Assembly (NCBI GenBank): GCA_965213685.1
Contig: CBDBZY010000017.1
Location: 1-14,563 of the forward strand
Reading direction: 5' to 3'
Length of the DNA: 14,563 nt
DNA from: a bacterium
Lineage (GTDB): Bacteria > UBA8248
Shown: positions 2 to 12,709 of the stretch, one piece after another
Layout of the letters: each line of letters begins with the position of its first letter
How positions within the stretch are numbered: position 1 is the stretch's first letter
Notes under the pieces: model-generated
The model's input: only the letters and a program-made list of their open reading frames with translations
Told to the model about the DNA's origin: nothing
The model's database searches: none
Made by a program: the position numbers and the translations under genes

Positions 2-3000
2 CAGGAGGCTGTCCAGGCAATCGGCGGGAACGCCATCGCGAAGCATGTGCGCGCCGAGGACCGCGAGTACCTCGAGGGTGCGCGCGAGGGGATGGAGGTG
101 GGCGGCTTCACGGGTGCGCTCCTCGGGGCCCTCGTTCCGGGCCGGGTCCGAAAGAAGGACCCCAAGGAGTCGCAGGAGGCCTTCGTCGATGCTGCAGCGG
201 AGTCCGGCCTTTCAGACCAGGAGATCGAGGCGGCGGTCCAGTGGATCGGCGAGCAGCAAGATCCCGAGCTCGCTTCCGTTGAGGCGATCAGCGCGCTTCC
301 TGCCCGGGAGGCGCCGGAATTGCCTTCGCTCCGCCAGGAACTCGAGGGAAAGCTCGAAGCCGGCGAAGAGCTCACCCCCGCACAGGAGCGGGCGCTCGAG
401 ATTGTCCGGGAGGATGAGGGCGACCCCCCCCACACCCCGGAGGAGCTCCAGGCCTCCAGGACGGCCCGTGCGCGCGAGTTGTTCGCGGGCGAGGTGACAG
501 AGGAGGAGGATGGCGATCCCCTGGCAGGGCTCAAGCCAGACGTCCGGGAGGCCCTCGAGGCCAGCCAGCGGGAGCGGCAGCTCCGAGACCGGGCTGGGGA
601 GAACATGCGGCCCCTCCTTGACGCGATGGAGATCGCCGAGGGTCCGGACAAGGAGGTCCTCTCGTCGCTCGTCTTCGGGGCGGTCTCGAATCAGGAAGAA
701 ATTTCCGACCTCGACGCGGCGGAGGCGGCCCTTGAGGACGTGGCGTCGGGCGAGTTCTTCCGGCGCCGGGCCATGGAGGAGGAGCCGAAGGCGGTGGCGA
801 AGGCCGAGGACGTCATGGACGATCCTCTCGCGCGAGCTCGGCGGGGCACTCCGAAGGACAAATCCACGCCCCAGGAGCCACCGACAGAACCGACAGAACC
901 GGCGAAAGCCCCCAAGCAGCCGAAGAAGAAGGAGACCCCGAGGGCGCGGCGGAAGAAGAAGGCCCTCGCCGGGGAGCTCGGCCTCCAGGCGTTCGTCCGG
1001 GCTCAGGGTGGGCTGAAACCCTCCGGGGAGTCGGCGCGCTACTCCCGGAAGGAATACGACCTCGGGGAGGGGAAGGAGTTCGGCCCCCTCGCGAGGACGA
1101 AGGACGGAGGGCGGAACATCGACGACCTTGCGGAGGCCGCATGGGAGGCGGGCTTCTTCGCCGAACGGCCCACGGAGGCGGAGTTCCTGGACGCGGTAGA
1201 GGGGAACGCGAACCTCCTCGGGGCCGAGCCCGCGGCAGCCCTGCCCGGGCCCACGGAGGTCCACGGGTCCATTACGGACGCGGCGCTAGGCTTCAAGAAG
1301 GACCCCGCCCCCGACGCCATCCTCGAGCAGGCGGAGAAGGAGGATCCGGACATCGAGGGGTTCCCCTGGGAGTCCCGGAAGGATGCGGACCTTATGTTGT
1401 CCGGAACCCTGCCCCTCGTGAGCATCGACGGGTCGCGGCTCTGGGAGGGCACCAAGAAGTTCGTGCGGCGCAACTTCGCCTCCAGGGGGCACCTCCCCGA
1501 GCCCGCGTTCATGCGCAAGGTGCAGCGGGACGGAAAGGTCCAGCGCGAGCTCCAGCAAACGAAGATTCTCCTCAGCGACTTCGACAAGGCCGTGCGGAAG
1601 GCCTTCGACCGAGGCAAGCCCACCGAGGAGTCCATCCGGAAGATCGACGAGGCCTTCAAGAACGAGAGCAAGATCAAGCATCTCCCCGAGCCCCTCCGCG
1701 CCCCCGTGCGCGCGATGCGGGAGCATGTGGACACGCTCTCTCGGCGCATGATCGACCTGGGTGTCGTTGAGGGCGACCTCGCGGCCCGCGTGACGGACAA
1801 TCTCGGGTTCTACGCGACGCGGACCTACAAGGTTTTCGAGGATCCGGACTGGCACAGGAAGGTCCCGGTGGAGGTGCGCAACCGGGCGAAGGCGTTCTTG
1901 CGCGCGGAGCATGGGATCACCGACTCCCAAGCCGACAAGCTCATCGAGAACATCCTCATGCACGGCACCGCGGCGGAGAACCCGATCGCGTTCCTTGCCG
2001 GCGGGAAGCTGGGCGCGAAGGACCTCTCGATCCTGAAGCGTCGGAAGACGATCCCCCGCGTGCTGCGCGAGCTCATGGGGGAGAACAAGAACGCCCGCAC
2101 GAACTACGCGAACAGCGTCCTGAAGATGGCCCACCTCGTGGAGAACCATCGGATGCTCCACGAGTTCAAGCGGGCGGGAATGGGCAAGTGGCTGTTCGAA
2201 GCGGACGACCTCGACCGCCCGGACGGGTTCACCGCGAAGATCGCCTCCGAGAAGTCCAAGGTGCTCGAGCCCCTCAACGGGCTCGTGACCACGCCGGAGA
2301 TCCTCCAGGCGCTCGAGGACTTCACCGGACCCGGGTCTCCCGTTGAGGGTGTGGCGAAGGCCATGCTCAAGATCAACGGCTTCGCCAAGGGTGCGAAGAC
2401 GATTGGTTCCGTGCAGACGCACATGCGGAACCTGATCGGCAACGCGGGATTCGCGACGGCAAACGGCCACTGGAACCCGACGAAGTTCAAGGACGCGATG
2501 GCGCAGCTTGCGAAGCGCACGCCGGAGAACCGCAAGCGCTACCTTCGCGCGGTCGAGCTCGGCGTCGTGTCGGAGTCGACGCACGCGGGCGAGCTCCGGG
2601 ACATCGCGAAGGACGCGGGCTTCATGACCCAGGAGGAGTACCTCACGGACACCTCCCGGAAGGGCCTCAAGAAGCCATTCGATTGGGCCGCGAACCTGTA
2701 CCAGGCGGAAGACGACCTCTGGAAGCTCTACGCGTGGGAGAACGAGAAGGCGCGGTATCGGAAGGCCTTCCCCAAGAAGAGCGAAGCGGAGATCGAGGAG
2801 CTCACCGCGAAGATCGTGCGGGACACCTACCCCACGTACTCCCTCGTTCCCCGCGGGATGCGACTCCTCCGCCGCAACTGGCTCGTTGCCCCCTTCGTCT
2901 CGTTCCCGGTGGAGGTGATCCGCGTCACGAAGAACACGGCGCAGCTCGCCTACAGGGAAATGCAGAGTCCGGAGACGCGGGCAATCGGCATGCAGCGCGC

Positions 3001-3970
3001 GGTAGGCATGGCAATGGCCGCCACGCTGCCGAACGTCGCTGCACTGTGGCTCCGCGCTCTCGCGGGGATGACGGCCGACGACGAAGAGGACGCGCGCGAG
3101 TTCTTCCCGCCGTGGTCGAAGAACTCGACGGTGCTGTGGCTCAACAACAACTCCCGGGGTCAGCGCCGCTACATCGACATCAGCTACACGGACCCGTTCT
3201 CCTACATCAAGAAGCCCGCGATGGCGCTGTGGCGTGGTGAGGATCCGGTGGACATCGCGCTATCCGCAGCCAAGGAGGCGTTCGATCCGTTCATCTCCCC
3301 GGAGATTGTCACGCGGGCCGCGGTCGAAGTGGTGACGAACAAGAAGGAGACGGGCGGCAAGGTGTGGAACGAGTCGGGCTCTCCCAAGGAGATCGCGGCC
3401 GAGATGCTCACCCACATCGGCAAAGCCCTCGAGCCGGGAACCTCAGCGAGCATCCGCCGGATCTGGAAGGGCCTCAACGATGAGGTGACCCTCTACGGCA
3501 AGGCGTATGACCCGAAGGTGGAGGCGCTCGCGATGCTTGGCGGTCAGCGCGTGACGACGCTCGACCTCCGCACGGCGACACAGTTCAAGGGGTACGCCCT
3601 GAGCGACTCGTTCTCGAACGCTCGGAAGAAGATCAGCGAAGTGGCCCTCAAGTCCGGATCCGTAACCGAAAACGAAGTGGAGGAGGCATGGGAACGTTCG
3701 GAAGCAATTCGCCGCAAGGCGTTCGACGAGATGGCCTCCGCGGTGCGGGCCGCCCAGAAGCTTGGGCAGAGCCCCGAGGACATACGTGCGGCGCTCGATG
3801 GCGTCCTCTCGAAGGAGGAGACGGAGAGGCTCCTCCGCGGGGACTACCGGCCGTACCGCCCCTCGTCGTCCTTCATGGCGAGCGCGATCAAGAAGGCTCC
3901 GGAGTCGCTGCGGGAGGGGCTCAACCGGAGGAGGGAGCAGATCCGTCGTCTCGGAGCTGGGAAGAATTGA
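2..3970 (+). CDS. Large polyvalent / virion internal (DNA-ejection-type) protein, 5'-truncated; C-terminal LPD38-like region
   Basis: The frame is open from position 2 (QEAVQAIGGNAIAKHVRAEDREYLEGAREGMEVGGFTGALLGAL), so GTG 47 is not the true start. It contains a Gly/Ala hydrophobic segment, an acidic/Pro-Lys linker and a helical body. The C-terminal FFPPWSKNS..YIDISYTDPF..PFISPEIVTRAAVEVVTNKKETGGKVWNE resembles the C-termini of phage large polyvalent proteins. Confidence 0.75.
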   Translation, partial: QEAVQAIGGNAIAKHVRAEDREYLEGAREGMEVGGFTGALLGALVPGRVRKKDPKESQEAFVDAAAESGLSDQEIEAAVQWIGEQQDPELASVEAISALPAREAPELPSLRQELEGKLEAGEELTPAQERALEIVREDEGDPPHTPEELQASRTARARELFAGEVTEEEDGDPLAGLKPDVREALEASQRERQLRDRAGENMRPLLDAMEIAEGPDKEVLSSLVFGAVSNQEEISDLDAAEAALEDVASGEFFRRRAMEEEPKAVAKAEDVMDDPLARARRGTPKDKSTPQEPPTEPTEPAKAPKQPKKKETPRARRKKKALAGELGLQAFVRAQGGLKPSGESARYSRKEYDLGEGKEFGPLARTKDGGRNIDDLAEAAWEAGFFAERPTEAEFLDAVEGNANLLGAEPAAALPGPTEVHGSITDAALGFKKDPAPDAILEQAEKEDPDIEGFPWESRKDADLMLSGTLPLVSIDGSRLWEGTKKFVRRNFASRGHLPEPAFMRKVQRDGKVQRELQQTKILLSDFDKAVRKAFDRGKPTEESIRKIDEAFKNESKIKHLPEPLRAPVRAMREHVDTLSRRMIDLGVVEGDLAARVTDNLGFYATRTYKVFEDPDWHRKVPVEVRNRAKAFLRAEHGITDSQADKLIENILMHGTAAENPIAFLAGGKLGAKDLSILKRRKTIPRVLRELMGENKNARTNYANSVLKMAHLVENHRMLHEFKRAGMGKWLFEADDLDRPDGFTAKIASEKSKVLEPLNGLVTTPEILQALEDFTGPGSPVEGVAKAMLKINGFAKGAKTIGSVQTHMRNLIGNAGFATANGHWNPTKFKDAMAQLAKRTPENRKRYLRAVELGVVSESTHAGELRDIAKDAGFMTQEEYLTDTSRKGLKKPFDWAANLYQAEDDLWKLYAWENEKARYRKAFPKKSEAEIEELTAKIVRDTYPTYSLVPRGMRLLRRNWLVAPFVSFPVEVIRVTKNTAQLAYREMQSPETRAIGMQRAVGMAMAATLPNVAALWLRALAGMTADDEEDAREFFPPWSKNSTVLWLNNNSRGQRRYIDISYTDPFSYIKKPAMALWRGEDPVDIALSAAKEAFDPFISPEIVTRAAVEVVTNKKETGGKVWNESGSPKEIAAEMLTHIGKALEPGTSASIRRIWKGLNDEVTLYGKAYDPKVEALAMLGGQRVTTLDLRTATQFKGYALSDSFSNARKKISEVALKSGSVTENEVEEAWERSEAIRRKAFDEMASAVRAAQKLGQSPEDIRAALDGVLSKEETERLLRGDYRPYRPSSSFMASAIKKAPESLREGLNRRREQIRRLGAGKN

Positions 3971-4010: not shown

Positions 4011-4340
4011 ATGACCTTGGAAGAAATTCTGCGGGAGCTCGCAACGCAGGTTCCTTCCCTGGGAGTCCTCACGTGGCTCGTGTGGAAGGGACTGTCTACT
4101 GCACAATCACAGGCCGCCGCGTTCCTTGAGCACCTCAAGGGGCGTGACGAGTCGTTCTCTGGCGTCCTGAAGGAGATCGGGAAGGACTGCCACGAGCACT
4201 CCTCCGACCTCACCGAGCGGTATCGGGCGGCGATGGAGCGGCAGACGCAGATATCCGAGCGCGTGGGGGAGAAGCTCGACAAGAACACGGAGATGCTCGG
4301 CCGCGTAGCGTCGGCCCTTGCCCGAAGGGAGTCAGCATGA
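4011..4340 (+). CDS. Small membrane protein (one N-terminal hydrophobic segment + coiled coil), holin-like position, 109 aa
   Basis: ATG 4011 is preceded by GGGGAG (3996-4001). MTLEEILRELATQVPSLGVLTWLVWKGL is followed by an amphipathic helix. The stop overlaps the next ATG (ATGA). Holin function is positional inference only. Confidence 0.7.
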   Translation: MTLEEILRELATQVPSLGVLTWLVWKGLSTAQSQAAAFLEHLKGRDESFSGVLKEIGKDCHEHSSDLTERYRAAMERQTQISERVGEKLDKNTEMLGRVASALARRESA

Positions 4341-4624
4341 GCCAGGAAGCCGCCCGCCCTGTAGGCCCGCAGCAAATGCGCCAGTGGAGCCCGCTACTCC
4401 TCCTCCTCGCGGGGGCAGGGGGCTATTTCGAGCTCCGGGCGACCCCTCAAATGGCCGAGGCGATCGGGCAGCAGCTCGACCGCCACGAGCGCCGGGGGCA
4501 TGAGGACCACCCCACCCGTGCCGAGCTCGACGCGCACCTCGAGAAGCACACCGCCATCGCCGAACAGATCCAGCGGACCCTCGAGCGGATCGAGGACCGG
4601 ATGGACGAACTCTCGAAGGACTGA
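4337..4624 (+). CDS. Small membrane-anchored His-rich coiled-coil protein, 95 aa
   Basis: AAGGGAG SD and ATGA overlap. Hydrophobic WSPLLLLLAGAGGYF, then a His-rich segment and heptad-like IAEQIQRTLERIEDRMDEL. Confidence 0.75.
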   Translation: MSQEAARPVGPQQMRQWSPLLLLLAGAGGYFELRATPQMAEAIGQQLDRHERRGHEDHPTRAELDAHLEKHTAIAEQIQRTLERIEDRMDELSKD

Positions 4625-4628
4625 CCCC

Positions 4629-5030
4629 ATGCGCAGACTCCTCGCCCTCCTCGTGCTCGCCCTCGCCCCCGCTTGCAAGACCGCCCCGGACGGGACGGTC
4701 ACCTTCGACCCTGAGGCCGCGAGCCTCGCCATGAGCATGGCTCAGGTGGAGATCGAAGCCGCCCGGATGGACCTCGCGGACTACCGGGTCCTCCGCCCTG
4801 AGGCGGAGTGGGTGGACGACGTGGACCAAGCCCTCAACGCGGTCTCCCTCGCGATCAACGCCTACCTCACGGCGACCGACGCCGGAGAGGAGGGGGAGAT
4901 GGAGCCCCTCCGGGCGGCCCTCGAGTTCGCCCTGGGGGCCACCGAGCCCCTCGTCGCTGACGAAAAGATGGGGCCCGAGATCATGCTCCTCCGAGGGATT
5001 CTGCGAAGAGCCCTGCTCTACACGGAGTAG
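4629..5030 (+). CDS. Putative lipoprotein, 133 aa
   Basis: ATG 4629 follows GAAGGA (4615-4620). MRRLLALLVLALAPAC is a signal peptide with a lipobox-like Cys16, followed by an acidic helical body. The ORF-track start at 4500 is an overextension. Confidence 0.75.
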   Translation: MRRLLALLVLALAPACKTAPDGTVTFDPEAASLAMSMAQVEIEAARMDLADYRVLRPEAEWVDDVDQALNAVSLAINAYLTATDAGEEGEMEPLRAALEFALGATEPLVADEKMGPEIMLLRGILRRALLYTE

Positions 5031-5615: not shown

Positions 5616-6647
5616 ATGATCGAAAAACTCGAGCTCGAGGTCCCCGGTGAGGGCTCCCTCCGCCAAGAGGAGCGCGAGCGGTGGCTCGAGGCCCGCAAGG
5701 GCACCCTGGGAGGCTCTGGCGCCGCGGTGGCCGTCGGCATGGGCCGGCACGGGTCCCGGATGCGTCTGTGGGCCGAGATGACGGGCAAGGTCCCCCCGGA
5801 GGACATCAGCCGGAAGGAATACGTCTACTGGGGCAACGCCCTCGAGGGCACCGTCGTGGAGGAGCTCGGCCGGCGGACGAAGTTCCGCCCCACGGACTGG
5901 AACGAATCGCCGGATCCCCCCTGGCGGGGGTTCATGGAGGACGCGGAGCACATGGGGGCCTTCGATATCAAGGCCGACGCGCGCGACCGCTATCAGCACC
6001 TCTACCGCTCCAAGGCCCGCCACTGGCAGACGCTCTCCCCCGATGCCTTCTGCAACCACCCCGAGCATGGGCTCGGCCTCGTGGAGGCGAAGACCGTAGG
6101 TGTCCGCTCGTCGCCCGACTGGAGGGACTCGCCGCCCGAGTGGGTGCAGCTTCAGATTGCGCACGGCCTCGCCGTGACGGGGCTCCCCTACGGCGTGATC
6201 GTTGCCCTCGTCGGGGGACAGCAACTCCTCGCCTACATGGTCGAGCGCGACGATGAGCTGATCGAGCTCCTCAACGAGCGCGAGGCGGACTTCATGGAGC
6301 TCGTGGAAACAAAGGTCCCCCCGGAAACGGACGACCACCCCGACACGCTTGCGACCGTGAAGGAGCTCTATCCCACAGGGAACAAGCGACGGGTTGTCTT
6401 GCCCGAGAGCGCGCTCCACTGGGATGAGGTGCTGCAGCAAGCGAAGGCGGACGCGCGCGTTGCCGAAACCCTCGTGAAGGGGCTCGAGGCACGAATGCGC
6501 GCCATGATTGGGGAATACGAGTACGCTGAGATTCCAGGGGGAGAGTTCGAGTACACGCTCCGCACGCAGACCCGACCGGAGAGGATCACGGAAGCCTACT
6601 CCTACCGTGAGCTCCGCAGACGCAAACGCAGGAAGCCCCGCAAGTAA
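5616..6647 (+). CDS. YqaJ-family (lambda-exonuclease-like) viral recombinase exonuclease, 343 aa
   Basis: WLEARKGTLGGS..LWAEMTG..WGNALE, SPDA..LVEAKT (PD-(D/E)xK), QIAHGLAVTG, ALVGG, ERDDELI..F..VETKVPP are all characteristic YqaJ motifs. Confidence 0.92.
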   Translation: MIEKLELEVPGEGSLRQEERERWLEARKGTLGGSGAAVAVGMGRHGSRMRLWAEMTGKVPPEDISRKEYVYWGNALEGTVVEELGRRTKFRPTDWNESPDPPWRGFMEDAEHMGAFDIKADARDRYQHLYRSKARHWQTLSPDAFCNHPEHGLGLVEAKTVGVRSSPDWRDSPPEWVQLQIAHGLAVTGLPYGVIVALVGGQQLLAYMVERDDELIELLNEREADFMELVETKVPPETDDHPDTLATVKELYPTGNKRRVVLPESALHWDEVLQQAKADARVAETLVKGLEARMRAMIGEYEYAEIPGGEFEYTLRTQTRPERITEAYSYRELRRRKRRKPRK

Positions 6648-8608: not shown

Positions 8609-8708
8609 GCGAGTCCTGGCGGAGAATTTCGGCGTAAGCCGGTTTGCCATTCAGAAGGTGGCCACCGGCGCACGCTGGACCCACATCCCCTGGCCTAATG
8701 AGACGTAA
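8592..8708 (+). CDS. Miniature HTH DNA-binding peptide, 38 aa (like the C-terminal HTH of phage HNH endonucleases)
   Basis: GGAG 8581-8584 then ATG 8592. MPRKRKRVLAENFGVSRFAIQKVATGARWTHIPWPNET matches the LAxxFGVSxxxIxxIxxGxxWxH pattern. Confidence 0.55.
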   Translation: MPRKRKRVLAENFGVSRFAIQKVATGARWTHIPWPNET

Positions 8709-9015
8709 GCCGCGCCATAAGTTCCATGCGCAGCCCACGGAGCGCGACGGACAACGATTTGACTCCAAGCTAGAGGCCCGCGTTTACGACCGCCTGAAGC
8801 TGCAGCAAGGCGCCGGAGAGGTGGTGTTCTTCCTGCGACAGACGCGCTTTGATCTCCCCGGCGGGGTGACCTACCGCTGCGACTTTCAGGTCTTCTACGC
8901 CGACGGCACAGTGGCCTTCCTGGACGCAAAGGGGTTCCGCACGCCACAGTACGTGCGCTCTAAGAAGCAAGTCGAATCGCTGTACCCGGTCACGATTGAG
9001 GAGGTCACTCGCTAG
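8698..9015 (+). CDS. DUF1064-family PD-(D/E)xK nuclease-like protein, 105 aa
   Basis: HKFHAQPTERDGQRFDSKLEARVY..LRQTRFDL..YRCDF..LDAKGFRTPQY..KK is the typical DUF1064 motif set. ATG 8698 overlaps the upstream gene. Confidence 0.85.
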   Translation: MRRKPRHKFHAQPTERDGQRFDSKLEARVYDRLKLQQGAGEVVFFLRQTRFDLPGGVTYRCDFQVFYADGTVAFLDAKGFRTPQYVRSKKQVESLYPVTIEEVTR

Positions 9016-10414
9016 ATGAAGCTACTACTGCTCGCGTTCTTGGCCCTTTGGGCCCCGCAGGACACAGACATTCCCCCGACGAAGGAGGTGATTGAGGAGC
9101 TCGAGTCCGGGCAGCCCCCCGCCCCTCCGGACGTCAGCGAAACCCTCGAGGCCGTGGTCAAGGGCGCGCGGGGGAAGAATCTCAAAGAGATCGACCTCTC
9201 GGTCCGGCCTCCGGGCGAGGTCGGGGGGATGGACTTCAACTGGCCCGGGTGGACGGGCAACCGCACGAAGATCAACACGGAGGGATACGACGGGGTGCGT
9301 ATCCTCGGGCAGGGCGTCAACGCGACGGTTATCACGCCCGGGTACGAGGCCGCGTTCGTCTTCGGGCAGGGGACGGGGTTCGTCGAGATCTCGAACCTCA
9401 CGATCGTTTGCGGCAAGTCCTTCGGGATCAAGTGGGGTACGGCCCGGGGTGAGTGGGTCGACGACGGAAAGGGGGGCCAGCGGTACGTCGAGCGCCGCGA
9501 CACGCACTACCCCAACGACTTCCTCAGCCTCCGGAACGTTCGGGTTATCACCTCCGATCCGCCGCCGACAGGGCCGCGTACGACCACGAAGTGGGGCGTT
9601 CACACGATCAATGTGGACATTCACTTCCGAAACGTCGTTTTCGACATGCCCTATTCCGCGGAGCACGCGCTCTATGCGCACGGCTTCGCCAAGTACGGTG
9701 CCCTGTGGCGTGACGTCGTCATCGAGGCCGTGGGGGCGGAGGGCTTCAAGGCCGCATCGCGCCCCTGGGAGTGCTTCTGGGCGCCAGAGGCGCAGATCTT
9801 CATCGACCGTTGCGAGTTCCGAAACTTCAACCAGCCTTGGAGCTGGCGGGGTGGCGCGGGGATCGCTCTTGCGGGAAGTGGTGCGCAATACATCCACGTG
9901 AAGCGCTGTCTCTTTGTGGGGCGCCCCAACGAGGAGCCGGGCGGCCCGCCGAAGGATCAGCTCTTCATGATGAGCGACGGTCTCTCAACGATTCAGAGCG
10001 CGGAGAACAACCGCATGCGCTACTACGACCACAACGGGGTCCCCGGGGGTCCTGGGAGCGCGAATGGGCACGTTCTGATCGAGGATTCGGCCTTCCAGGG
10101 GTACGGAGGCGGGAACCGCGAGAACATCCGCTTGGGGACGCTCTACCCGGGCTACGAAGAGCTCGGACTTCCTCCCCACACAATCGCGCAGAGCTTTACC
10201 ATGCGTCGGTGCGCGTTCTACGGGCCCCCCTTCATGGGCAACCGAACGAGGGCATCGATCATGGACGTCGCGTTCGACAGGATCCACGTCCGTGAACAAC
10301 AACACCGAAGACCTCAAGACCCTGGCGGAGGAGGAGCTCGGGTTTGACACGCAGTTCGAGGGGTGGCTCTACACGGAGAGCGTGAGCCGACCTTTCAGTG
10401 AGGGCACGCGGTGA
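9016..10414 (+). CDS. Exported right-handed beta-helix (pectin-lyase-fold-like) protein; apparent +1 frameshift near 10284
   Basis: GAGGAGG SD and signal peptide MKLLLLAFLALWAPQD. Beta-helix-like rungs (VRILGQGVNATVI, VEISNLTI, LSLRNVRV, IHFRNVVF, IFIDRCEF, IHVKRCLF, VLIEDSAF, FTMRRCAF). As read it stops at 10347. Removing one C at 10284-10285 gives ..DRITSVNNNTEDLKTLAEEELGFDTQFEGWLYTESVSRPFSEGTR, whose TGA (10412-10414) overlaps the next GTG. Confidence 0.7.
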
Positions 10415-11043
10415 GGGCCCTTGTGGGCGCGCTCCTGCTGGGCACCGCGTTCGCGGTCCTGGCGCTGAGGGAGGAGCCCGCCCGGGAGCGCGAAGCTCCC
10501 ACGGTGAGAGAAGAGCAGCGGGGAGGGATTCCGAAGGACCGTCCGTCAGTGGTGGCGGCTCCAGAGGAGGAGACTCCGGGGGGATTCTCTTCCCTCCCCG
10601 CTCACCCCGCCCCCGAGCCCACGTTTGAGGAGCTCCTGCTCGCCGAGATCGAGCTCCAGGGTGCCGAGGATGAGGCGGGGCTCTGGTTTGACGCAGAGGC
10701 GGAGATCCTCAGCGACACGGCGCGGTACGCCCCCACGCGGGAGAACCTCGTGCAGCGTCTCAAGGACCTCCAGCTCGAGGCCCACCTCCTCGACCTCGAT
10801 CTCGACCGCATCCTCGAGAGTATCGAGCTCCAGGAGTGGCTGTACGCCGATGCTGCAGCCAACGCCGTTCAAGGGCTCTTCCTCGACACGGAGGAGACCA
10901 ACGAAACGCTCCTGCGACTCCGGGAGGAGCTGTCGCAGGTGCAGAGGGAGGCTTTTCGCCGTGTCCTCTTGGTCGATCGGCAACATGGGCCGGTCGCTCT
11001 CGAGGACTATCTCGCCACCATGTTTTCCGAGGAAAGCGAATGA
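10411..11043 (+). CDS. Membrane-anchored/exported acidic helical protein, 210 aa
   Basis: N-terminal MRALVGALLLGTAFAVLAL, a Pro/Glu linker, then a Glu/Leu-rich helical domain. Stop overlaps the next ATG. Confidence 0.75.
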   Translation: MRALVGALLLGTAFAVLALREEPAREREAPTVREEQRGGIPKDRPSVVAAPEEETPGGFSSLPAHPAPEPTFEELLLAEIELQGAEDEAGLWFDAEAEILSDTARYAPTRENLVQRLKDLQLEAHLLDLDLDRILESIELQEWLYADAAANAVQGLFLDTEETNETLLRLREELSQVQREAFRRVLLVDRQHGPVALEDYLATMFSEESE

Positions 11044-11456
11044 GGAAGCTACTAGCGACGCTGTGCGCTGCGCTGCTCCTGAGCGGCTCGGCCCTTGCTC
11101 AAGGGGTGAACTCCCCTTCCGTCAACAACGGCTCTCGTTGGGTCCACGAGGGTGGATACGAGGTCACGTTCAACGTGAAGGCCGATCATCTTCACAACTG
11201 CGGGGACCTCTCCGCGCGTGACTCTACGGGGAAGTCCGGGAAGGTTGGGATCACCCCCGGCCCGGGGGACTCTGCGAAGAAGTCTGGAATCGTCCACACC
11301 CCCGGCGGCAACTCCTACCGCGTGCGCGCGGGGAAAGCCCAAGTGAAGACACCCACGGGCTGGCAGAACATGAAGCCGGGCTCGGACGACGTCACCACCT
11401 CCCCGCTCGAGAAGGAGAAGGGCGGGAAGGAGTCCTCCCCGCCAACCCCGGGGTAG
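11040..11456 (+). CDS. Small secreted protein with Sec signal peptide, 138 aa
   Basis: ATGA overlap at 11040 with GAGGA upstream. MRKLLATLCAALLLSGSALA-Q has an A-x-A cleavage site. The mature part is Gly/Ser/Thr-rich and beta-like. Confidence 0.78.
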   Translation: MRKLLATLCAALLLSGSALAQGVNSPSVNNGSRWVHEGGYEVTFNVKADHLHNCGDLSARDSTGKSGKVGITPGPGDSAKKSGIVHTPGGNSYRVRAGKAQVKTPTGWQNMKPGSDDVTTSPLEKEKGGKESSPPTPG

Positions 11457-11464
11457 GTTTCTCC

Positions 11465-11806
11465 AGCCCGCGCGCGGGAACCGTCACTCTTGGGGGCAAG
11501 AGGGCGCGCGGGCTTCGCACTCTCACTACCTCTTGCGCCCTCCCCCTTGGGCCCCGCCGCGTACGGGCATTCGCGCGGCGGGGCCCTCTTCGTGGAAAAG
11601 AGGGAGCCCGAGAGAGGTCGCCGAGTCTCGGGCTCCCAGGTGCCGTGGGTTGTGGGGTCGACCGAGGGGGGGCACAACCCGTTGGGGCACCGCGCAGGGG
11701 GATCGTACCTGAAAAAGCGAAGGCCGCCCCACCGAGGCGGAGAGGGCGACCTTGCCGTGTCGAAGCCCGTGACATAGGCTCCAACGAATGAAGTTGGCAT
11801 CTTCGA
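11465..11806. ncRNA. Candidate structured RNA / cis-regulatory leader upstream of the replication gene
   Basis: Consecutive perfect stems: 11 bp (11465-11475/11504-11514), 13 bp (11549-11561/11574-11586), 12 bp (11602-11613/11626-11637), 6+8 bp (11639-11644/11686-11691 and 11647-11654/11673-11680). Also a 10-bp one-mismatch stem (11720-11729/11744-11753). No convincing CDS. Confidence 0.55.
11712..11755 (-). terminator. Putative intrinsic terminator on the minus strand
   Basis: The minus strand reads GCAAGGUCGCCC-loop-GGGCGGCCUUCGC-UUUUU. The plus-strand C/A mismatch becomes a G-U pair on the minus strand, and the hairpin is followed by a U5 tract (A5 at 11712-11716). Confidence 0.45.
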
Positions 11807-11820
11807 GAGCAGTGTAGCCC

Positions 11821-12709
11821 ATGAGCCGCAAGGGTAAGCCTGTGGCTTTCCAGTTCTACGCAGCGGACTGGAGGGGGGACCCACAGGTGCAGCGGATGAC
11901 TTTCGCGGCGCGCGGGGTCTACATCGAGCTCCTGGCGTGTGCGTTCCAGGACCGGGGCCGCCTCCCTGGGGATCCAGAGGAGATCCGTCGGGTGGCTGGC
12001 GTGGACCGCGACGAGTGGCTCGAGGTGTGGGGGCAGCTCGAGCGCCACTGGCCCGTGATCGACGGCGAGCGCCACAACCCGAAGTTGACGCGAGTCATGG
12101 AGGAGCAGACGGGAGCACCGGGAAAAAAGGTCCGAGGCGGGCAAGGCGGGAGCGGCGGCCCGATGGCAATCGCATAGCGATCGCAATGCGGACGCAATGC
12201 CAAGGGGTATGGCAAACGATAGCTCTCCTTCTCCTTCTCCTTCTCCTTCTCCTTCTCCTTCTCCTACTCCAGGAGCAGAAGAACCCGCGCGTGCGCGCGA
12301 GGGGGGGGCTTCGCCCCCGGAGGCTTCGCCTCCCCCCCCTGCCGCTGCTCCTCGATCGAAGGCGGTCTCTTGGGAAGAGGCTCTGTCCAGCCACCCGGAG
12401 CTCTTGGGGGCCCCTGGGGTGCTCGAGGCCCTCCGGGACTGGCAGGACATGAGGCGGCGCAAGAAGTGTCCGCTCACTCCGCTAGGCGCCGCCCGAGCGG
12501 CCGCCACCCTCGCGCGGATTTCCCCGACCCCCGACGCGGCCGTGAGGTACATCCAGGTGGCGACCGATTGCGGCTGGAGAAGCTTCCACGTCCCGAAGGG
12601 TGAGCAGGGGCGAGAGGAGTTCTCTCTCCGTGGCCCAGAGGTCGTCGGGAATCCATTTTTGACCCGCAAGCTCCGTGAAGAGGCGGAGGGTAGCTATGGG
12701 CCAGGTTGA
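11821..12709 (+). CDS. Phage replication initiator, DUF1376/YdaU-like N-terminus; split by apparent +1 frameshift near 12109
   Basis: FQFYAADWRGD..MTFAARGVYIELL..GRLPGD..NPKL is a DUF1376-type N-terminus. The +1 frame continues REHREKRSEAGKAGAAARW, a typical following motif, and joins ORF 12197-12709. That ORF has an (SP)7 linker and a C-terminal DWQDMRRRKKCPLT..GWRSF initiator-like domain. Joined length is 295 aa. Confidence 0.8.
12163..12223 (+). repeat. Degenerate 11-bp-period iteron-like repeats inside the initiator gene (candidate replication origin)
   Basis: ATGGCAATCGC / ATAGCGATCGC / AATGCGGACGC / AATGCCAAGGG then ATGGCAAACG-ATAGC. The position in the inter-domain linker matches lambda-O-type origins. 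Confidence 0.5.
12224..12265 (+). repeat. Perfect hexamer microsatellite (TCTCCT)7 encoding (Ser-Pro)7
   Basis: Directly visible in the sequence. Confidence 0.95.

Follow-up and report, generated by a model that had tools for sequence, protein, structure and literature searches.

The contig CBDBZY010000017.1, whose whole length of 14,563 bp is the window analysed here, carries three consecutive genes, which we call gA, gB and gC, between recombination and replication genes of a phage. In the explanation that we favour, at a probability of about 45%, gA would be a non-virion beta-helix enzyme that is made with the early genes, is exported and acts on glycans; gB and gC would be exported accessories specific to the lineage, and the whole a local insertion. 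The evidence comes from the modelled fold of gA, from the conserved motifs of its family, and from the N-termini and coupling of the three genes.

That the three genes are consecutive, as had been proposed in the initial annotation of this DNA, was confirmed by the open reading frames (ORFs) on the + strand. In the list below, GC3 is the GC content at third codon positions.

9016-10347, + strand: gA as written, an ORF of 443 residues
9016-10290, + strand: main body of gA in frame 1, defined by the ORF, a GC3 of 0.85, the AlphaFold2 model and the motifs
10411-11043, + strand: gB, an ORF of 210 residues with a GTG start
11040-11456, + strand: gC, an ORF of 138 residues

The tight coupling claimed for the genes is borne out by their overlaps. 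The sequence contains the ATGA overlap described between gB and gC (ATG 11040-11042, TGA 11041-11043), and motifs resembling Shine-Dalgarno sites (GAGG) lie 6-11 nt ahead of the starts of all three genes. GC3 is 0.80 in gB and 0.83 in gC, compared with 0.74-0.88 in the annotated phage genes of the contig.

The AlphaFold2 model of gA, built from an alignment of 95 family sequences (A2), has a mean predicted local distance difference test score (pLDDT) of 90.2 and a predicted template modelling score of 0.88. It consists of a signal-like peptide (residues 1-13), a proline-rich linker with two short helices (residues 14-55) and a right-handed beta-helix (residues ~56-425). A structure search with this model returned right-handed beta-helices only, on a flat plateau of Z scores of 18-23 to about 50 entries over residues ~50-443. 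Representative matches by structure comparison are given below, with root-mean-square deviations (rmsd) where they were recorded.

Polygalacturonase 1bhe: Z 23.1, rmsd 3.6 with 280 residues aligned
Adhesin PfbA: Z 22.8
Alginate epimerase/lyase 8ja4: Z 22.5
AlgE6: Z 22.3
RbmB: Z 22.2-22.3
CBA120 TSP2 and Sf6 tailspikes: Z 22.1-22.3, rmsd 3.6-3.8 over 259-279 residues
NosD: Z 20.4
AlgG: Z 20.1-20.3
VexL and WceF: Z 18.7

The epimerase and lyase enzymes, at Z 20-22.5, are tied with polygalacturonase, PfbA and the tailspikes. In Foldseek the top rows for gA are alginate epimerases and lyases, with E-values of only about 1e-3, and in BFVD they are proteins of the pectate-lyase superfamily and tail spikes. 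The model thus confirms gA as a predicted right-handed parallel beta-helix of the pectate-lyase-like kind, in agreement with the beta-helix-like large protein of the initial annotation, with Z scores of 20-23 to carbohydrate-active beta-helix proteins.

A profile search of 1.84 billion representatives places gA in a family with 217 representatives at E<=1e-3 and 126 at E<=1e-30, where the counts are of clusters at 50% identity; the alignment A2 was used for the motifs, the tree and the model. Most members have 370-450 residues, start directly at the helix and have no adaptor domain, and all those found so far come from uncultured phage and metagenome contigs. The most conserved motif of the family is EHxxYxHG, which in gA reads EHALYAHG (residues 216-223): H217 and Y220 are found in all 95 aligned sequences, E216 in 94 and H222 in 90. 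Two further family motifs, GAExxK and QPWSWRGGAG, correspond to GAEGFK (residues 240-245) and QPWSWRGGAG (residues 273-282) in gA. The motifs are about 25-30 residues apart and lie on successive rungs of the model (E216/H217/Y220/H222, then E242/K245, then Q273/R278), a spacing that an active-site groove would have. From the fold class and this conserved polar ladder, we infer that gA may be catalytic and that its substrate may be a glycan.

By sequence comparison, the family is unnamed and stands apart from the known beta-helix families. Beta_helix of Pfam (PF13229) is matched by 12 of the 95 members, with a best E-value of 2.5e-7, and PHROGs by none; searching the family profile against the chains of the PDB gave no match at E<=1, and three members searched by tblastn against 50,697 GenBank phage records found no relative. 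The pattern DPH[DE], the catalytic motif of the AlgG/AlgE type, is found in none of the 95 sequences, gA included, and the GH28 motifs are not in gA. As a degenerate DNA pattern, QPWSWRGG(A/G)G picked out two true loci in IMG/VR, described below as L005 and L006; the variant QPHSW gave no match, and P0002, the nearest relative of gA (47% identity), gave none in IMG/VR when used as query. The same QPWSWRGG(A/G)G pattern matched seven times in 185,579 species genomes, in no case within an ORF that fits the family profile at E<=1e-5, and we regard these matches as chance rather than as homologues. No relative of gA was found in the A1 scan of genome contigs, and among 50 other genomes of the assembly's phylum none holds a member of the family.

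The reading frame of gA is broken near 10290, which the initial annotation had read through without mention. Its length of about 465 residues for gA, and its GTGA overlap between gA and gB, hold only if this 1-nt frameshift is read through; as written, gA has 443 residues. Three features describe the site.

10288-10294, + strand: frameshift site of gA, from frame 1 to the +1 frame, located by the homologue alignment, hhalign, the GC3 switch and a contig break
10292-10414, + strand: C-terminal 40 residues of gA in the +1 frame, with the family tail '(C)NT..LG.DT...P.S.G', the hhalign match and a GC3 of 0.85
10291-10347, + strand: out-of-frame tail of the 443-residue ORF, EQQHRRPQDPGGGGARV, with a GC3 of 0.21, pLDDT below 50 and no counterpart in homologues

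Nine homologues from the word-indexed search align to gA as far as '...RIHV' and then carry the tail '(G)CNT...LG.DT...P.S.G', which gA has only in the +1 frame. When the +1-frame peptide was compared with the 95-member family alignment by hhalign, it matched profile columns 350-388 of 398 with a probability of 94% and an E-value of 1.3e-7. The composition switches at the same place: GC3 of frame 1 is 0.85 up to 10290 and 0.21 after it, and that of frame 2 after 10290 is 0.85. In the gA model, residues 429-443, which belong to the frame-1 tail, have pLDDT below 50. On this evidence, the frame-1 tail at 10291-10347 is probably no part of the real protein. In the +1 frame the stop codon TGA (10412-10414) overlaps the GTG start of gB (10411-10413).

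As to the cause of the shift, the Logan contigs of the only public run with this stretch (X1), at a mean word depth of about 2, include one that ends at 10290 and a next that starts at 10291. Since an independent assembly breaks at the exact site of the shift and the depth is only about 2, the shift most likely stems from an assembly join at low coverage. The frameshift is probably an assembly error with one surplus base, though this falls short of proof and a real mutation may lie behind it. A programmed +1 frameshift was also considered and set aside, as the sequence at 10288-10294 offers neither a slippery nor a stop-codon context and the assembly break falls on the same site.

The initial annotation assigned an N-terminal signal or anchor to each of the three proteins, and signal- or anchor-like features are indeed seen on all three. 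The N-terminus of gA is MK followed by a hydrophobic run of 11 residues (LLLLAFLALWA), with a proline at +1. That of gB is MR followed by a hydrophobic run of 17 residues (residues 3-19) with a possible VLA|L site, and this segment could be either a signal or an anchor. That of gC is MRK followed by a run of 17 residues ending in ALA|QG, that is, MRKLLATLCAALLLSGSALA|QG, which makes a typical Sec signal with no lipobox; the sole early cysteine of gC, residue 9, lies within the hydrophobic core. Judged by these N-terminal features, gA, gB and gC are predicted to be exported.

In the family of gA, a crude hydrophobicity test of the N-termini found a signal-like segment in 40 of 154 proteins, several of them with lipobox-like ends (...AC, ...SC), and the remaining members begin directly at the helix ('NLxEIxLPAGD'). 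We mapped this label on a FastTree phylogeny of the 95 aligned members, for which the N-termini were excluded from the alignment columns. Of these members 19 bear the label, and its distribution needs 13 changes, at least nine of which are forced by well-supported branches; shuffled labels needed 17.4 changes on average, and only 1 of 500 shuffles was as low as 13. Close sisters can differ (P0003 is without a signal, P0038 has one), and P0002 bears one. Taken at face value, export would be an option that is repeatedly switched rather than a trait of the family, but mis-called starts could explain part of the scatter on the tree.

The second protein, gB, has a hydrophobic helix (residues 3-19), a linker rich in proline and glutamate (residues 20-71) and an acidic, all-helical domain (residues 72-210). 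Its isoelectric point is 4.3, the 52 residues of the linker include 10 prolines and 11 aspartates plus glutamates, and the helical part, with an isoelectric point of 4.15, has no cysteine. A single-sequence model of gB is poor (pLDDT 51), with a helix at residues 2-18, disorder at 19-71 and helices at 72-209. Of the earlier description of gB as an acidic helical protein with a proline-rich stalk, the composition therefore stands (isoelectric point 4.3; 10 prolines in residues 20-71), and the helices depend on this low-confidence model. The mature part of gC has 118 residues, is basic (isoelectric point 9.3) and rich in glycine, proline and lysine, and contains one cysteine. On the opposite strand, inside gB, there is an ORF of 146 residues (10546-10986, - strand) with a GC content of 0.81 at first and 0.78 at third codon positions, as high as those of gB. 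Composition alone cannot separate the strands here, and the sense strand of gB is preferred because gB is coupled at both ends, has an N-terminal hydrophobic helix and follows the one-strand layout of the contig.

No relatives of gB or gC were found. A word-indexed search of 5.8 billion proteins returned only the proteins themselves; 10 and 21 pattern matches for gB and gC, respectively, in IMG/VR gave no confirmed relative; and a tblastn search of the 8-Mb assembly gave nothing below an E-value of 0.37. Neither protein had a match at or above the curated cutoff in Pfam (scanned at E<=10), NCBIfam, PHROGs or PADLOC. In the ESM Atlas the best score for gB was 0.83, and gC had no usable match.

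Five other loci with homologues of gA (L001, L002, L003, L005 and L006) were covered by the co-occurrence check; the contigs of P0002 (42.6 kb), P0004 and P0038 were not included.

L001 (IMG/VR, 44% GC): homologue immediately before terS, terL and portal, and preceded by an HNH gene, a 193-residue protein and a NUDIX-like lipoprotein
L002 and L003 (metagenome, close relatives of each other): homologue one small ORF after terL
L005 (IMG/VR): homologue, then a 212-residue protein, then a signal-bearing protein of the sulfatase family (PF00884, E 1.5e-18)
L006 (IMG/VR): homologue between unannotated genes

Relatives of gB or gC were found at none of these five loci. The initial annotation had proposed an undescribed three-gene system and had held that a failure of the genes to co-occur elsewhere would speak against it; as far as these tools reach, the genes do not co-occur, gB and gC have no relatives, and the proposal is not supported. 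The best-supported reading of these comparisons is that the trio would be a lineage-specific, moron-like local insertion and not a conserved system. As the trio is not conserved, its general importance would be limited unless gB and gC are functional partners.

There are hints from sequence that a different, partly conserved partner gene may accompany the family elsewhere. The 212-residue protein of L005 is 35% identical over 55 residues to the product of the ORF downstream of the L002 homologue (pairwise E 7e-7). The motif 'GPS...VV(A/T)VNRAI' is shared between L005 1-2026 (- strand) and L002 2745-3005, in two unrelated phage contigs. This downstream protein had no match in Pfam, and its likeness to proteins of the DUF115 type is tentative. 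The set at L005 and L002 may represent different glycan-modifying genes that are tied to the beta-helix family.

How the three proteins may work together can be pictured as follows. As part of one translational string that includes the recombination genes, gA would be made before or during replication as a soluble, non-virion beta-helix enzyme, most likely one acting on polysaccharide. That gA would not be a virion spike is argued from the family, whose members have no adaptor domain, span ~370-450 residues and start at the helix. With its short Sec-type signal and proline-rich linker, gA would cross the cytoplasmic membrane, and its conserved groove would there serve to cut or alter a glycan in the envelope or on the surface of the infected cell. 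The second protein, gB, would be tethered to the membrane through its N-terminal helix, with a flexible linker of proline and glutamate leading to the acidic helical domain, and gC would be secreted and basic. Through the start/stop overlaps, gB and gC would be made in fixed proportion with gA, and the most economical reading is that they would be private accessories of gA, such as a tether, a foldase or a regulator. We infer that the three proteins may interact and that the pay-off would be removal of a receptor or easier release.

Several observations weigh against this explanation. As written, gA is frameshifted, and if the shift is real, the cap conserved at the C-terminus is missing and the protein may be dead. 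Its signal is short (11 hydrophobic residues), also by the standard of a membrane anchor, and has no canonical -3/-1 cleavage site. In the gA family, about three quarters of the members are without a signal, so export is no family trait. The enzyme activity, the substrate and the export of gA are predictions, and fold is no proof of catalysis, as the plateau of Z 18-23 includes non-enzymes such as PfbA, NosD and pertactin-like proteins; gA itself has no match in Pfam (0 families even at E<=10), PHROG, NCBIfam or PADLOC. Finally, gB and gC stand beside no other member of the family, and what links them to gA is their adjacency and the start/stop overlaps.

Known systems resemble parts of the trio. 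AlgG and AlgE4/6 are mannuronan C-5 epimerases, RbmB is a Vibrio biofilm lyase and VexL is a periplasmic capsule depolymerase. These enzymes, like 8ja4 and WceF, are monomer-sized beta-helix proteins that leave the cytoplasm to act on the polysaccharide of their own cell, as is predicted for gA. WceF is a Tat-exported stewartan-modifying enzyme, whose export signal and role in the chain length of the exopolysaccharide have been described (PMC7949094). Unlike the AlgG/AlgE/WceF group, gA is encoded by a phage, outside a polysaccharide-synthesis cluster, and has its own set of motifs (EHxxYxHG/GAExxK/QPWSWRGGAG). With regard to gB, some exported enzymes have private periplasmic chaperones encoded downstream of them, such as the lipase-specific foldase Lif and PlcR of the plcHR operon. 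Like these, gB as predicted has an N-terminal anchor, a proline-rich linker and an all-helical domain, and its gene directly follows that of a putatively exported enzyme, to which it is coupled. However, gB has no sequence homology to them (it has no match in Pfam, NCBIfam or PHROG), Lif is much larger than gB, and a match of gB to the PlcR cluster in the ESM Atlas is weak, with a score of 0.75 where 0.9 is the meaningful threshold.

Phage beta-helix depolymerases are otherwise known almost only as virion spikes, and the gA family is short, spike-less and marked by an invariant motif of its own. If the family is enzymatic, it would be a new set of phage-borne, glycan-active enzymes, and export would suggest a remodelling of the host envelope by some phages from the inside, ahead of lysis, with possible bearing on receptor masking, release from capsule or biofilm, and enzyme discovery. 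A literature search found no account of a non-virion phage beta-helix enzyme bearing a signal peptide, which is not proof of absence. In a more ambitious version, gA would be an early-exported enzyme that destroys receptors or remodels the envelope, gB a tethered private foldase or docking protein and gC a small secreted modulator, so that the trio would form an enzymatic module for superinfection exclusion or envelope priming. We consider this version improbable; if true, the module would be of a kind not described for phages, and the scattered gain and loss of the signal would reflect repeated switching between acting from outside after lysis and acting on the phage's own host from the periplasm.

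Among the rival explanations, a functional link between the genes is denied by one in which gA belongs to a mobile single-gene family and gB and gC, as orphan envelope proteins in their own right (e.g. for superinfection exclusion at the membrane or for host takeover), stand beside it by chance, the three being unrelated morons. That homologues of gA occur alone in four contexts (before terS, terL and portal; after terL; before the 212-residue and sulfatase-family proteins; between unannotated genes), that relatives of gB and gC are found nowhere, and that stop/start overlaps are the norm along the contig all agree with it. It is nevertheless somewhat doubtful in our view, as three consecutive exported proteins closed by a structured spacer of 364 bp are more simply one unit, and gB, with its anchor, linker and helices and its place right after a putatively exported enzyme, resembles the private periplasmic chaperones described above. 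Overlapping with the other readings, it is also conceivable that the frameshift is real, gA a dead gene and the cassette a decaying remnant. As assembled, the frame breaks near 10290 and leaves the 40 conserved C-terminal residues out of frame, and the evidence against a real shift comes from contigs at a depth of about 2 and not from read-level data. Yet the independent assembly breaks on the same base pair (10290|10291), as expected of an assembly join; coding periodicity is fully intact on either side (GC3 0.85 and 0.85), with no further defects; and the GTGA coupling to gB is retained in the shifted frame. A decaying gA is therefore unlikely.

A role in lysis, or in the virion, has also to be weighed. 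In the former case, gA would be a Sec-exported enzyme that degrades wall or capsule, as a substitute for or accessory to an endolysin, gB would be an anchored coiled-coil protein resembling an i-spanin, and gC would be its outer partner. Lambdoid phages keep their lysis genes upstream of terS, which is where the homologue in L001 lies. Like two-component spanins (lambda Rz/Rz1), gB and gC have overlapping genes for an anchored, helical periplasmic protein (as predicted for gB) and then a small exported protein; unlike in spanins, gC has no lipobox cysteine (its signal ends ALA|QG, and Cys9 is in the core), so it is not an o-spanin. No endolysin or other lysis family is recognisable among the 21 ORFs of the window, but the window is part of a phage only, so its absence means little; neither a holin nor an endolysin is adjacent, and the genes lie in the early region, between recombination and replication genes. 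Moreover, most members of the family are without a signal, and a better spanin-like pair is found at 4337-4624 and in the ORF from 4629. Endolysins with signal peptides exist, the example being Lys44 of the Oenococcus phage fOg44, which leaves the cytoplasm through the Sec machinery of the host before lysis sets in (PMC6116005); gA differs from Lys44 in being a beta-helix without a peptidoglycan-hydrolase domain and in not lying in a lysis cassette, and its Sec export is predicted. Taken together, a lysis module seems decidedly unlikely. Least probable by far is a role for gA in the virion, as a tailspike or as a depolymerase that binds the receptor. Tailspike and tail-fibre depolymerases (those of P22 and Sf6, CBA120 TSP2, and the capsule depolymerases of Klebsiella and Acinetobacter phages) are, like gA, phage-encoded right-handed parallel beta-helices, with Z scores of 18-22 between gA and many tailspikes, and in two independent contexts homologues of gA stand beside packaging genes. 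In contrast to them, gA is short, as is its family (~370-450 residues, starting at the helix); it has a signal-like N-terminus (13 residues) and a linker of ~40 residues where a tailspike has a domain that binds the particle; its gene lies among early genes, between recombination and replication genes and not in a tail or late module; and no sequence similarity was found with the family profile among PDB chains or with three family members among the GenBank phage records.

The neighbouring genes support the setting assumed above. All credible genes of the contig lie on the + strand, and those that can be recognised belong to a phage.

47-3970, + strand: virion protein of 1307 residues (phrog_22602, E 5e-54)
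5616-6647, + strand: YqaJ/RecE-like exonuclease, by family match
8644-9015, + strand: DUF1064 resolvase-like protein, by family match
11457-11820, + strand: non-coding spacer of 364 bp, strongly structured, which ends the gene string
11821-12177, + strand: DUF1376 protein, by family match
12197-12709, + strand: O-like replication protein, by family match

The trio thus lies between the recombination genes (YqaJ/RecE-like, DUF1064) and the replication genes (DUF1376, O-like). The best GenBank relative of the 1307-residue virion protein is in the Pseudoalteromonas phage vB_Pun_Y3, with 34% identity over 63%, and is annotated there as 'ADP-ribosyltransferase'. In vB_Pun_Y3 this gene closes the late genes, and recombination and O/P replication genes come next. 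From that gene order and from the flanking recombination and replication genes of the trio itself, the location in an early/replication region given in the initial annotation is a fair description. The virion protein is also 25% identical to terminal virion structural proteins of the Cellulophaga phages phi13:2, phi18:3 and phi19:3 and of the Pelagibacter phage HTVC027P, and its relatives place the contig near marine phages. Stop/start overlaps like those of the trio are common along the contig, e.g. at 6647, 7555 and 14101.

In the spacer that follows gC, the segment 11457-11620 has a predicted folding energy of -88.4 kcal/mol (z -3.25), and a perfect GC stem of 14 bp forms a hairpin at ~11550-11587. 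Scans of the region for Rfam families, tRNAs, promoters and terminators gave nothing specific, with no Rfam family in the spacer. The spacer likely closes a transcription unit or has a regulatory role ahead of the replication genes, and a terminator or an origin could account for it as well.

The window is the whole of contig C17 in an assembly of 7.97 Mb and 71 contigs. Its GC content is 66%, and its tetranucleotide use fits the high-GC contigs of the assembly (r ~0.87). The assembly itself is mixed, with populations at roughly 45%, 50% and 65% GC; the contigs inspected (C1-C30) have GC contents between 0.42 and 0.67, and from one GC class to another their tetranucleotide profiles show no correlation. 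It is therefore unsafe to tie this phage contig to any one organism.

Directly after the virion protein, at 4337-4624, is a gene for a 95-residue protein with one transmembrane segment and a charged helical tail, which matches phrog_1625 weakly (E 1e-4). From 4629 (to 5030) it is followed by a lipoprotein-like ORF of 133 residues (MRRLLALLVLALAPAC..., with ...LALAPAC). From these features, 4337-5030 is a candidate spanin-like pair and a better candidate for lysis genes than gB and gC. The hexamer CTCGAG occurs 34 times in the whole window against 12.5 expected, a count reached in none of 200 shuffles; rather than a signal, the excess probably reflects a codon-pair (Leu-Glu) effect.

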